Shown here one piece after another: positions 2,642 through 63,930 of a stretch of DNA of 64,000 bases. The notes under the pieces are model-generated. The model was not told where the DNA came from. It made no database searches and saw only the letters and a list, made by a program, of their open reading frames with translations. Every line of letters begins with the position of its first letter. The first letter of the stretch is position 1. This DNA comes from an uncultured Albidiferax sp. (GTDB lineage: Bacteria; Pseudomonadota; Gammaproteobacteria; Burkholderiales; Burkholderiaceae_C): assembly GCA_963513125.1 (NCBI GenBank), contig CAUPPH010000001.1, forward strand, positions 386,532-450,531. The letters are read 5' to 3'. A program made the position numbers and the translations under genes.

Positions 2642-2700
2642 ATCTAAAAATGATAGCTTGTCACGCCGATGGAATGGGCGGTGGCAGCCAATTGGGGCCA
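2642..2700 (+). repeat. REP-like family 1 copy (degenerate, intergenic)
   Basis: AAAATGATAGC followed by the CGCC..GGCG hairpin. Confidence 0.65.
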
Positions 2701-2744
2701 TGAAAAAGGCTCTAAAACCTCAAACAGGCCTTTTGCGGCAGGGC

Positions 2745-3506
2745 TTATGTCCAGCCCGCGTCCACCACAAAGTCTTGGGCGGTGACCATGCTACTGTCAT
2801 CTGCCGCCAAAAACAGCGCCATGTGGGCCACGTCGGTACCGACCACGCGGCCCGGCAGGCACTGGTTGGTGTCGATCAGGCGCTCGCCCTCGGCATCCAC
2901 CCAGTGGGTGAGCTGTTTCTCGGTCATGATCCAGCCGGGGGTCAGGGTGTTGACGCGGATGTTGTCGGGGCCCAGGTCGCGGGCCAGGCAGCGGGTGAGG
3001 CCCACGGTGGCCGACTTGCAGGTGCCGTACACGGGGTAGCCCTTGCCCTTGATCATCCAGCTCACCGAGCCCAGGTTGACGATGGCCCCACCCCCCATGC
3101 GGCGCATGCCGGGCACCACGGCCTGGGCGGCAAAGAAGGCGGGCCGCAGGTTGATGGACACACGCCAGTCGAAGTCTTCGGGGGTCACGTCCATGATGTC
3201 GTGGCGCGCGTCGTTGGCCACGTTGTTGACCAGCACGCTGATGTCGCCGTGTGCGGCAGCGGCCTGGGCGATGGCGGCCTGCAGCGCGGCCACGTCGCTG
3301 GCTTCGCTTTGCAAAAACAGCGGCGTGGGGCCGACTGCGCTGGCTGCGGCCAAGACCTTAGCGGCGGCCTCGGCATTGCGGCCCGTGAAGGCCACTCGGG
3401 CACCCTGGCGGGCAAAGCCCACCACGATGTCGGCACCGATGCCCGAGCTGCCGCCGGTGACGAACACGCTGCGGCCCTGCAGGCTGGGGTAGTTGGCGGT
3501 TTTCAT
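2745..3506 (-). CDS. SDR-family sugar (aldose) 1-dehydrogenase, XylB/galactose-dehydrogenase-like
   Basis: Start reassigned to MKTANYPSL; TGGSSGIG Rossmann motif, NNVAND and YGTCK catalytic motif. Confidence 0.85.
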   Translation of the reverse strand: MKTANYPSLQGRSVFVTGGSSGIGADIVVGFARQGARVAFTGRNAEAAAKVLAAASAVGPTPLFLQSEASDVAALQAAIAQAAAAHGDISVLVNNVANDARHDIMDVTPEDFDWRVSINLRPAFFAAQAVVPGMRRMGGGAIVNLGSVSWMIKGKGYPVYGTCKSATVGLTRCLARDLGPDNIRVNTLTPGWIMTEKQLTHWVDAEGERLIDTNQCLPGRVVGTDVAHMALFLAADDSSMVTAQDFVVDAGWT

Positions 3507-3516
3507 GCAGGCATCC

Positions 3517-62000: not shown

Positions 62001-63741
62001 CGGCAAAGTCGAGGATGGGCTGGGCCACTTCCAGGCGCATCGGCGGGTTCACCTGGTTGATGTCCAGCAGGTTGGGCTTGGGGCCGATGAAGGACACCAG
62101 CGACATGACGATGGCTTCGCGGATCGGGTCGATCGGCGGGTTCGTCACCTGGGCGAACATCTGGCGGAAGTAGTTGTACAGCGGCTTGTTCTTGTCGCTG
62201 AGCACGGCCAGGGGGCTGTCGTTGCCCATCGAGCCAATACCCTCTTCCCCGGCCTGGGCCATGGGCGAGAGCAGGAATTTGATGTCTTCCTGGGTGTAGC
62301 CAAAGGCCTGCTGGCGGTCGAGCAGGGCCGTGGGGCTGACGGTGGCGGCAGTCGCGTCGGCAGGCACGCTGTCGAGCTTGATGCGCAGGTTGTCGATCCA
62401 CTGCTTGTAGGGCTTGGTGTTGACGATGTTGGCCTTGAGCTCGTCGTCGTCGATCATGCGGCCCTGCTCCAGATCGATCAGGAACATCTTGCCAGGCTGC
62501 AAACGCCATTTGCGGACGATCTTGTTCTCGGGCACGGGCAGCACGCCGGACTCCGAGGCCATGATGACCAGGTCGTCGTCGGTGACGCAGTAGCGCGAGG
62601 GGCGCAGGCCGTTGCGGTCCAGCGTGGCACCGATCTGGCGGCCATCGGTGAACACGATGGAGGCCGGGCCGTCCCAGGGCTCCATCATCGCGGCGTGGTA
62701 TTCGTAGAAGGCGCGGCGGCGCTCGTCCATCTGCGTGTGCTGTTCCCAGGGCTCGGGGATCATCATCATCACGGCCTGGCTGATGGGGTAGCCGGCCATG
62801 GTCAGCAGCTCCAGGCAGTTGTCGAAGGTGGCGGTGTCGGACTGGCCGGGGAAGCTGATCGGGTACAGCTTGCCCAGGTCGGCGGCCAGCACCGGCGAGG
62901 CCATCACGCCTTCGCGGGCCTTCATCCAGTTGTAGTTGCCCTTGACGGTGTTGATTTCACCGTTGTGCGCCACATAGCGGTACGGGTGGGCCAATGGCCA
63001 CTCGGGGAAGGTGTTGGTGGAGAAACGCTGGTGCACCAGGCCGATGGCAGAAACGCAGCGCTCGTCGGACAAATCCTTGTAGTACACGCCCACCTGGTCG
63101 GCCAGCAGCAGGCCCTTGTAGATGACCGTGCGGCTGGACATGCTGGGCACGTAATACTCTTTGCTGTGCTTGAGCTTGAGGTTCTGGATGTTGGCGCTGG
63201 CGGTCTTGCGGATCACATACAGCTTGCGCTCCAGCGCGTCTTGCACGATGACGTCGTCGCCGCGGCCAATGAACACCTGCTTCAAGAGCGGCTCGGTCTT
63301 GCGCACCGTGGGCGACATGGGCATGTCCTTGTCCACCGGCACATCGCGCCAGCCCAGGAACACCTGGCCTTCGGCCTTGATGGCGCGTTCCATTTCCTGC
63401 TCGCAGGCCTGGCGGGAGGCGTGCTCTTTGGGCAGGAAGATCATGCCGACACCGTACTCACCGGCGGCGGGCAGGGTCACACCTTGCTTGGCCATTTCTT
63501 CGCGGTAGAGCGCGTCGGGGATCTGGATCAGAATGCCCGCGCCATCGCCCATCAGCGGGTCGGCACCCACGGCACCCCGGTGGTCGATGTTTTCCAGGAT
63601 CTTGAGCGCCTGGGTGACGATATCGTGGCGCTTTTCGCCCTTGATATGGGCCACAAAACCCAGACCACAAGCATCGTGCTCATTGCTGGAGGAATACAAA
63701 CCGTGGTCTTTGAGATATTGGATCTCGGCAGCCGTTGTCAT
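59011..63741 (-). CDS. gltB: Glutamate synthase large subunit
   Basis: HDACG (Ntn Cys), [29 protein letters not shown] and [13 protein letters not shown] motifs. Confidence 0.98.
59026..59081 (+). repeat. REP-like family 1 copy encoding the gltB C-terminus (antisense)
   Basis: TGCTACATTTTTAGTAGCTGCCTGCGCTTGTTCTGTTTGCGCTAGAGCCACTTTTC. Confidence 0.9.
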
Positions 63742-63869
63742 GGCGCTCTCCTATAGTGTTTCGCGGGGGATCGAAGCATAAAGCACAGCAACAACAATGC
63801 CAAGCAGAATAATAGGGGTCAGATTCCAATTAATTCCCGACAAAACCACCAAGAAATTAAATAGGGACA

Positions 63870-63930
63870 CATCAAAAACAGGAGCTACTTCCGCTTTATT
63901 TATAAGCGCACAGAGCACTTTTTATTCTGA
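63870..63930 (+). repeat. REP-like family 1 copy touching the stop of the edge transposase-like gene
   Basis: CATCAAAAACAGGAGCTACTTCCGCTTTATTTATAAGCGCACAGAGCACTTTTT. Confidence 0.75.

Follow-up and report, generated by a model that had tools for sequence, protein, structure and literature searches.

How does a short palindromic repeat that is scattered between the genes of a bacterium come to lie in frame within conserved proteins as well, and what maintains it there? This question is raised by a stretch of 64,000 nucleotides from the genome of an uncultured Albidiferax species (hereafter the window; positions 386532-450531 of contig C1 in the 4.83-Mb assembly, labelled G000 in the comparisons with other genomes), in which one repeat family is found between genes, at stop codons and inside reading frames. 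The family is a repeat of the REP (repetitive extragenic palindromic) type with a variant architecture, which is apparently kept as DNA and is probably a signal that is read by a putative factor.

The repeat unit and its placement in the genome

The inverted head GCTAY-N7-RTAGC has eight exact matches in the window, which has a G+C content of 62-67%, compared with an expectation of 0.09. Repeat finding and manual alignment revealed a single family on both strands, and the anatomy that had been proposed in a preliminary description of the sequence, an inverted GCTAY/RTAGC head followed by a GC hairpin and an AT-rich tail, in both orientations, is seen in the alignment of the window copies. The unit of about 59-68 nt (copies reach 66-69 nt) comprises GCTAY-N8-TAGCT, an imperfect GC hairpin around TGCTTGCGC...GCGC that has two fixed mismatches and is closed at its top by an invariant GC...GC, and an AT tail that ends with TAAATTT; the 59-position consensus is GCTATTAAATTAATAGCTGCTTGCGCTGATGGAATAAGCGCTAGAGGCCTATTT..., and the overall length is about 66-68 nt. 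The boundaries of the copies are sharp. The second box (TAGCT) contains an RTAG tag, the variants of which are ATAG in 491 copies (60%), GTAG in 178 (22%) and AGAG or GGAG in 114.

Three iterations of a nucleotide profile (nhmmer) over the whole assembly yielded 1150 matches, which represent 926 loci, or roughly one copy per 5 kb of genome. Nineteen of the significant distinct loci are in the window, between 2643 and 63927, and one further copy (44015-44081) is below the threshold in G000, so that the family stands as it had been described, with a slightly smaller number of copies than the approximately 21 claimed. Each unit consists of one hairpin accompanied by an inverted 5-nt box. Only 2.8% of the gaps between neighbours are shorter than 500 nt, and the copies are thus singletons rather than the inverted doublets (two inverted REPs within about 130 bp) that define REPINs. 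The spacing of copies along the genome is slightly regular, and intragenic copies are found where extragenic copies are sparse.

Gene calling with a codon log-odds model that had been trained on long open reading frames (ORFs) with a high G+C content at third codon positions gave 4083 genes, which cover 85% of the genome. Relative to these genes, 526 of the 926 loci are intergenic, 214 touch the end of a gene and 186 lie inside a called ORF, in agreement with the initial view that the family occupies protein-coding as well as intergenic DNA. The median distance of the extragenic copies to a stop codon is 5-8 nt in either orientation. Convergent intergenic regions contain 37% of the copies and represent only 14% of the regions, whereas divergent regions contain 8% of the copies and represent 26% of the regions. 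The two orientations relative to the upstream gene are about equally frequent (171 versus 164), and the copies have no replication-strand bias (394 versus 377). Many genes terminate on a TAG or TAA that belongs to a repeat copy. The stop-proximal placement and the use of TAG and TAA as stop codons match published REPs (PMC3733652), and the family has the placement profile published for them, that is, it is mostly extragenic, close to 3' ends and scarce between divergent genes.

Strong coding potential in the same frame over 300 nt on each side was found for 144 of the 186 copies inside ORFs, which represent the strict cases of copies that lie in frame and wholly within an ORF. Their hosts, ordinary conserved genes, include those for PurL, PutA, MacB, MutL, HrpA, the CCA-adding enzyme, an alpha-2-macroglobulin, propionyl-CoA carboxylase, TruB and DapF. 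Sense and antisense copies are equally represented (71 versus 73), and two frames account for 74% of the intragenic copies, yielding peptides rich in Ala, Ser and Ile, for example, AIxSIAxxAxGISAxG and NQPPALIPSAQAAIxSIA. Pure avoidance of stop codons as the cause of this frame usage can be rejected only tentatively: the favoured frames are open in 32-40% of the intergenic copies and other open frames are under-used, but the frame labels are possibly off by one. When synonymous codons were shuffled within every gene, 1-3 coding matches were obtained, compared with 192 in the real genome, and thus the excess of coding copies is real. Today, the copies survive chiefly just past stop codons and in the loops, linkers and termini of proteins. 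It should be noted that this bacterium is free-living and that 3-4% of its genes hold an in-frame copy of a repeat of the REP type, a type usually regarded as extragenic.

Insertion and overwriting inside genes

Two explanations of the intragenic copies had been put forward in the preliminary description, namely, an insert that donates a peptide, like the Rickettsia palindromic elements (RPEs), or a driven DNA signal that is written into genes without a change of length. Twenty-six segments of host genes were compared with orthologues from genomes that lack the repeat family. The intragenic copies are of full length (66-69 nt, equivalent to 22-23 codons), but the orthologues are shorter by a median of only about 4 residues in family-level outgroups and about 6-10 residues in order-level outgroups, with a range from 10 residues longer to 27 residues shorter. 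Near-full gains of 15-27 residues relative to outgroups were found in a putative GluQ-like tRNA synthetase, GpsA and KdtA (all three named by sequence only), whereas the net gains, depending on the outgroup, are 1-6 residues in TruB, 3-8 in PurL, 3-5 in HisD, 4-11 in DapF and about 0-6 in MacB. A gain close to the full length of the peptide, as with RPEs, is seen in a few genes, and the genes studied in detail have gained about 0-12 residues from an element of 22-23 codons. Neither explanation is sufficient alone: the insert accounts for the sharp boundaries, for an 81-nt indel (see below) and for proteins that are up to 15-27 residues longer, and the driven signal accounts for the gains of about 0-12 residues, for the recoding of a conserved motif in the CCA-adding enzyme and for boxes that are kept while the amino acids vary.

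In several cases the repeat overlies native protein sequence. In DapF, the native WPL is retained inside the element. In the CCA-adding enzyme, the outgroups have RRDLTINAMA followed by a loop of 5-6 residues, whereas the genus has RRDLTIN(S/A)IA followed by a loop of 18 residues, a net gain of 12. The left arm of this copy coincides with the universal motif RRDxTINAxA/TINAxA, which is written ACT ATy AAT xxx ATA GCT, with box codons that represent 3.9%, 16%, 2.4% and 5.7% of their synonymous sets in G000 (joint probability 9e-6). These box codons are retained in 15 of 16 genomes of the genus as well as in G017, although the amino acids of the loop vary. In G001, in which the family has all but vanished (two matches to the repeat skeleton defined below), the segment has the same length and its codons are GC-rich.

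The sub-threshold copy of the window (44015..44081, plus strand) is a second case, because it overlies residues 37-59 (RVIKTIAAAARLAGAGTTIEV) of an exported protein encoded at 43907-45061 with rare codons and without a change of length. The corresponding site has matches of 20-31 bits in G004, G015 and G005, with zero length difference, and the run of rare codons ATT AAA ACT ATA GCT GCT GCT has a probability of about 1e-8 under the codon usage of the genome. The exported protein has no match in Pfam; it is presumably beta-helix(-cap)-like. The overlap of the repeat with native codons may have originated by insertion guided by microhomology, by later recoding under selection for the boxes, or by conversion.

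Age, turnover and distribution

The comparison with the sister species G015, which has about 91% nucleotide identity, covered 468 kb. For 69 of 75 G015 copies with collinear flanks a copy is present at the orthologous site of G000, and three further copies are matched in G000 at equal length by sequences below the threshold. One clean difference in the presence of the whole element, of 81 nt and without a target duplication, distinguishes G015, G005 and G004 from G000. Nearly all copies of the window are present at equal length in G015, G004, G005 and G007, and G008 and G011, with an identity of about 82-84%, share several of them. The copies in the genes for PurL and the CCA-adding enzyme recur in each of the 15 other genomes of the genus, although they have diverged or decayed in the most distant of these, and they also occur in another genus. 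The shared orthologous sites, together with the clean indel, show that the copies once spread as whole units and that the family is now essentially static, with copies that are almost immobile.

The distribution was determined with a skeleton that is independent of the hairpin dialects described below (GCTAY-N8-TAGCT-N6-GC-N11-GC). It has 331 matches in G000; of the 120 genera that were sampled in the taxonomic family, about 20 have at least 16 matches, and nearly all others have 0-2. An earlier diagnostic pattern that required ATAAGC was discarded as unfit for this purpose, because it under-counts other dialects (42 matches in G011, compared with 358 by skeleton). On balance, the repeat appears to be a family of the REP type that is old and has been inherited vertically within a clade of Comamonadaceae. 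As a side observation, the skeleton counts in six genomes of the genus, all of which have an intact gene for a RAYT-like protein (RAYT, REP-associated tyrosine transposase), include 2 in G001 (assembly 73% complete), 44 in G010, 331 in G000 and 358 in G011.

Constraint on the DNA and hairpin dialects

The divergence between G015 and G000 was quantified by region for 68 orthologous pairs. It amounts to 12-13% in the flanks, 8% in the GCTAT arm and 4% in ATAGC, compared with 21-23% in the hairpin arms, 28% in the loop and 15% in the tail; the invariant positions comprise GCTAT and TAGCT together with the GC...GC by which the hairpin top is closed. In 12-genome alignments of the genes for the CCA-adding enzyme and PurL, which are independent of the ascertainment of copies in G015, the boxes are invariant, and the amino-acid entropy of the element is 4-6 times that of the flanks. 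The use of rare codons to keep the boxes in frame suggests that the DNA as such is acted upon.

The top of the hairpin differs between lineages at orthologous loci. It is GCGCAGGT...ACCTGCGC in G011 and G008 and GCGCTTAT...ATAAGCGC in G000 and four close relatives, and both versions are self-complementary. At the variable hairpin positions, the identity is 0.524 among the paralogues of G011, compared with 0.449 between non-orthologous copies of G011 and G000 (permutation p 0.003); the value for orthologues is 0.607. In the four close relatives there is no excess of hairpin identity of paralogues over non-orthologues. One orthologous pair differs at about 16 positions of the central 32 nt, whereas the arms and flanks are about 95% identical. 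In this small sample, the dialects and the replaced centre suggest that the hairpin changes in concert, either through conversion or because it co-evolves with a putative reader.

Proposed explanation

The overall best explanation, to which we assign a probability of roughly 55%, is that an old, vertically inherited repeat family retains its boxes as a DNA signal. Selection on the DNA would keep the boxes because a putative trans-acting factor reads them, probably a protein that would recognize the pair of boxes and the foot of the hairpin; its target might be either duplex DNA or a hairpin that is extruded or single-stranded. The hairpin top would change in concert within a lineage, via short-patch gene conversion among copies or via co-evolution with the factor. 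Inside genes, a copy might persist only where one of its frames yields a tolerable peptide rich in Ala, Ser and Ile. If constrained residues coincide with an arm, the protein would keep its residues and the DNA would keep its boxes by the use of rare, AT-rich synonymous codons, and the recoded copy would thus partly overlie the native sequence rather than merely add to it.

Several points weigh against this explanation. The copies behind the divergence data were ascertained in G015 alone; this can reduce the apparent divergence of positions with a high information content by half, and thus the contrast between boxes and flanks is suggestive, not decisive. The dialect test rests on 15 copies in G011 and 7 copies in G008, and the regularity of the spacing is modest (coefficient of variation 0.90). 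For the net length differences, spans of +/-100 residues were aligned in loops that are variable, and the values are hence noisy. In addition, the family-level outgroups may carry decayed remnants of ancient inserts, as illustrated by the GltB tail, which reads ...KKNAVVPAK in G035 and ...TKNVAVEAK in G000. Such remnants would account for a part of the small length differences, but not for the recoded motifs.

A further-reaching version can be proposed only tentatively, and we consider it less probable than its opposite: the repeat might be a genome-wide recognition signal for a putative clade-restricted factor, kept uniform within a lineage by conversion or co-evolution, that dictates codons and loops in about 150 housekeeping genes, so that a process at the level of DNA would continuously rewrite conserved proteins. 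If the boxes are a protein-binding signal, they would be a new example of a signal for genome architecture or processing that is imposed on protein sequence, and if conversion is responsible, the family would offer a natural system for short-patch ectopic conversion in bacteria. Of general importance would be the combination of a constraint on DNA that overrides codon preference with a lineage-specific, concerted change at orthologous sites. On a practical level, the repeat inflates the apparent variability of loops and provides start and stop codons, and in Comamonadaceae it will lead gene callers astray, as well as tests of selection that are based on alignments.

The RAYT-like gene and alternative explanations

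The window ends within the 3' part of the only RAYT-like gene of the genome (63937..64000, minus strand; PF01797, 42-44 bits), which extends to about position 64620, past the window. The gene has a score of 76.5 bits with NF047646 (cut-off 80), and HUH (HFH) and YIDLNP motifs are present in its sequence. A weak copy of the family (63875..63927, plus strand, 19.4 bits; its counterparts in G015 and G004 score 35-36 bits) abuts its 3' end, and a repeat copy or a degenerate relative is found at this end in other genera, too. This arrangement speaks for an alternative in which the family would be an ordinary REP/REPIN population that is mobilized by the RAYT of the genome, selfish or commensal DNA whose intragenic copies are tolerated loop insertions with no later action. 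The single-copy gene with HUH and Tyr motifs, the RTAG tag 5' of an imperfect palindrome, the placement near 3' ends with TAG and TAA as stop codons, as in published REPs (PMC3733652), and the long vertical persistence known for REPINs (bioRxiv 10.1101/2021.07.10.451892) all fit this explanation.

However, family REPs do not flank the RAYT-like gene on both sides, and the weak copy at the 3' end is the only one. On either side of the gene lies another inverted repeat of about 30 nt that is outside the family, with one part at 63809..63839 (AATAATAGGGGTCAGATTCCAATTAATTCC; no strand assigned) and the second at about 64812-64846 (pair AATAATAGGGGTCAGA..ATTAATTCC, AATTGGGGTCAGATTCCAATTA), and of which about 9 copies are present in the genome. 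Conservation of this bracket beside gltB extends to 10 other genera, and the bracket looks like the RAYT-like gene's own REP pair. Moreover, the gene is present in 114 of 121 genera and the repeat skeleton in about 20 of 120, genera with a RAYT of 75-78% identity have zero repeat copies, and in G001 and G010 the gene is intact and the repeat is lost (two skeleton matches in G001) or sparse. The gene's own bracket, its wider distribution and the situation in G001 and G010 do not support a dependence of the repeat on the RAYT-like enzyme, and the lack of co-distribution weakens the original idea that the repeat is a RAYT target. The singleton organization, the excess of ATAG over GTAG, the lack of a replication-strand bias and the retention of rare box codons in genes across species are also at odds with an ordinary REP/REPIN population, and it is thus an unlikely explanation. 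A second, broken fragment of a Y1 transposase, with an in-frame TGA, is present at C2:531884-531997 of G000 (PF01797, 22 bits).

A second alternative, which we regard as distinctly improbable, is that the signal was made in place by substitution, through a drive like that of uptake sequences or through biased conversion, so that most intragenic copies would never have been inserted. It would readily account for copies that overlie native motifs with little or no change of length, such as TINxIA of the CCA-adding enzyme, residues of the exported protein at 44015-44081 and the N-terminus of HisD, as well as for the small gains of TruB (1-6 residues) and DapF (4-11 residues), the median of about 4 residues in the family-level outgroups, the concerted dialects of the hairpin top and the orthologous copy with a replaced centre of 32 nt between arms and flanks of about 95% identity. 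It is contradicted by the clean indel of a whole element and by the net gains of up to 15-27 residues compared with order-level outgroups in several genes; about 19 specified bases over about 40 nt plus a tail would be much to build by point mutation, and the strand asymmetry typical of uptake signals is not seen. Retention of the boxes as DNA in a family that once spread by whole units is the preferred explanation.

A structured RNA that is selected in transcripts (a terminator, an mRNA stabilizer or a small RNA), as might be suggested by the copies within a few nucleotides of stop codons, by G:T pairs that exceed A:C pairs by about 2:1 on the consensus strand and by the resemblance of a long-head variant to an intrinsic terminator, is very unlikely, as both orientations relative to the upstream gene are equal (171 versus 164), the mutual information of paired columns is <=0.03 with the exception of one pair (0.13), the folding energy is merely about 2 standard deviations better than that of shuffled sequences, Rfam gave nothing but chance at any threshold (none at the gathering threshold, only two chance microRNA matches at E<=1), and about 15-20% of the copies lie in ORFs, on either strand. 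No covariation was found among the 926 copies, and the compensatory-looking changes that are seen by eye are hence not a family-wide property. The claim that copies often serve as terminators was not borne out, because within positions 1-20000 of the window only the long-head variant (19289-19325) fits an intrinsic terminator. The BRE of Bordetella (Hot et al. 2011, PMC3110155), which is GC-rich (69%), 75-91 bp long and often in tandem, is unlike this repeat.

Copies inside the window

Several copies of the window lie between convergent genes. One is located 3 nt past the stop codon of a KDPG-aldolase gene assigned with Pfam (7843..7904, plus strand, 43.4 bits), another at 11473..11531 (plus strand, 49.7 bits), a third 8 nt from the stop codon of a minus-strand gene (23272..23331, minus strand, 40.3 bits), and a near-perfect palindrome at 46799..46852 scores 41.3 bits on the plus strand and 35.3 bits on the minus strand. 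The tail of the convergent copy at 30097..30157 (minus strand, 48.7 bits) overlaps the final 7 nt of a thioesterase gene; this copy is orthologous in six relatives, and G011 and G008 have the other hairpin dialect. The best copy of the window begins 6 nt past a stop codon (36271..36328, plus strand, 54.1 bits) and has orthologues in G015, G004, G005 and G007. The copy at 17925..17982 (minus strand, 43.0 bits; orthologous in G007 and G004) lies between divergent genes.

Further intergenic copies are found at 2643..2693 (plus strand, 32.5 bits by nhmmer; a same-site copy is present in G015, G004 and G008), at 19969..20021 (minus strand, 28.8 bits), at 57306..57362 (plus strand, 37.4 bits) and at 12074..12132 (plus strand, 37.6 bits; orthologous copy in G005), and a weak one is found at 54998..55054 (minus strand, 21.6 bits), which is degenerate at the same site in relatives. 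The region 12150-14393 is richer in AT (58% G+C) and bordered by a repeat copy on its left side; the label of a HigB/HigA-IrrE islet given to it at the first reading is that of a candidate.

The long-head variant is represented at 19260..19315 (minus strand, 25.0 bits), where the head forms a hairpin of 16 bp followed by a T run on the plus strand (terminator-like site 19289-19325), and at 20483..20534 (minus strand, 35.8 bits), after a small plus-strand gene, in a position that is also occupied in G015, G004, G005 and G007. A segment of about 540 bp that comprises a small gene and a long-head copy is duplicated at 18796-19338 and 20026-20557, 1.2 kb apart and with 83-93% identity, and further copies of this segment exist elsewhere in G000 and in relatives.

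The in-frame overlaps with coding sequences that had been reported are real, but they number 5-6 instead of seven. The copy at 21489..21547 (minus strand, 34.7 bits) provides, according to the translations, the last 16 codons of the ORF 20583-21536 together with the start of recJ in an ATGA overlap; RecJ domains were identified with Pfam, and the copy has an equal length in six relatives. A weak in-frame copy (33363..33417, minus strand, 18.8 bits) encodes residues 117-135 of a LytTR response regulator, that is, the linker between the receiver domain (6-117) and the LytTR domain (146-245, both by Pfam), again with equal length in six relatives. Another weak copy (48135..48190, minus strand, 24.3 bits) covers the start codon and codons 1-18 of hisD, and the N-terminus of HisD exceeds that of outgroups by only 3-5 residues and keeps an R-L-S...F pattern. 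The copy at 59026..59086 (plus strand, 36.1 bits) is read antisense as residues 1552-1572 of GltB, right before the stop codon; the GltB tail extends 10-12 residues beyond order-level outgroups and is about equal to that of family-level ones.

Outside the window, at C1:280651-281522 of G000, about 800 nt with reverse-transcriptase-like coding sequence, possibly a fragment of a group II intron, adjoin a repeat copy and are absent at the orthologous site of G015.

Comparison with known systems

REPs and bacterial interspersed mosaic elements (BIMEs) as well as the REPIN-RAYT systems of Enterobacteria and Pseudomonas (Nunvar 2010; Bertels & Rainey 2011; for long REPIN persistence, Bertels and Rainey, bioRxiv 10.1101/2021.07.10.451892) share with this family a short imperfect palindrome with a 5'-side tag that ends in TAG, hundreds of copies near the 3' ends of genes with an enrichment between convergent genes, and long vertical inheritance alongside a single-copy Y1/HUH RAYT-like gene. 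In contrast to them, the repeat described here is composite, has a length of about 68 nt and includes GCTAY as an additional inverted box, occurs as singletons and prefers ATAG over GTAG, its RAYT-like gene has another flanking repeat and a distribution that is not shared, and 15-20% of its copies are intragenic.

The RPEs, reportedly described by Ogata and co-workers in 2000 and 2002, are said to be ancient, to be translated in frame in housekeeping genes and to be tolerated at surface loops. The common feature is thus the presence of ancient palindromic repeats that are read in frame within conserved housekeeping genes. However, elements of the RPE-1 type are longer and add whole peptide segments, and there is no sequence relationship. 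We know of no description of a two-box skeleton, lineage dialects or the recoding of native motifs for RPEs.

The DNA uptake sequences (DUS) of Neisseria and the uptake signal sequences (USS) of Pasteurellaceae reportedly accumulate in genes in permissive frames and in weakly conserved protein segments, a finding attributed to Findlay and Redfield in 2009. Uptake sequences have a length of 10-12 nt (up to about 29), are defined by sequence and not by a hairpin, and occur also as inverted pairs after genes. The present family resembles them in being a DNA motif that accumulates in genes.

Parts of the repeat have been noticed before as statistical motif pairs. Tong & Mrazek 2017 (PMC5217627) listed GCTTAT(N)5AAGCG in Acidovorax ebreus as a potential novel motif with 114 copies and ATAGCT(N)22CAAAAG in Polaromonas naphthalenivorans with 125 copies, 18 of them in genes, and found the most significant motif pairs among all genomes studied in Rhodoferax ferrireducens T118. 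GCTTAT-N5-AAGCG is the top of the hairpin of this repeat (GCGCTTATGGAATAAGCGC) and ATAGCT is its second box, and the placement is the same, near genes and often between convergent genes. Their study provides motif pairs only, and neither an element nor in-frame intragenic copies nor a comparison across species. In the literature, no description of this repeat as a family was found, in agreement with the preliminary description, whereas the class of intragenic REPs, and pieces of the motif, had already been published (PMC3733652; PMC5217627).

The closest precedent for the intragenic copies is the work of Di Nocera, De Gregorio & Rocco 2013 (PMC3733652), in which REPs with GTAG or CGTC tags were found in frame in known genes, often genes for DNA repair or RNA modification and repeatedly TruB. 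In that study, the TAG of the tag serves as a stop codon, REPs lie less than 20 bp from 3' ends, and the intragenic ones are treated as insertions into flexible loops; Acidovorax, Polaromonas, Rhodoferax, Comamonadaceae and Burkholderiales are not mentioned in it. In contrast to those intragenic REPs, many copies of the present family lengthen the protein by far less than the peptide that they encode and, by codon choice, lie over conserved motifs, and the scale reaches 144-186 genes in one genome. The repeat can be placed in a known class, the intragenic REPs of Di Nocera 2013, as a variant that is new.

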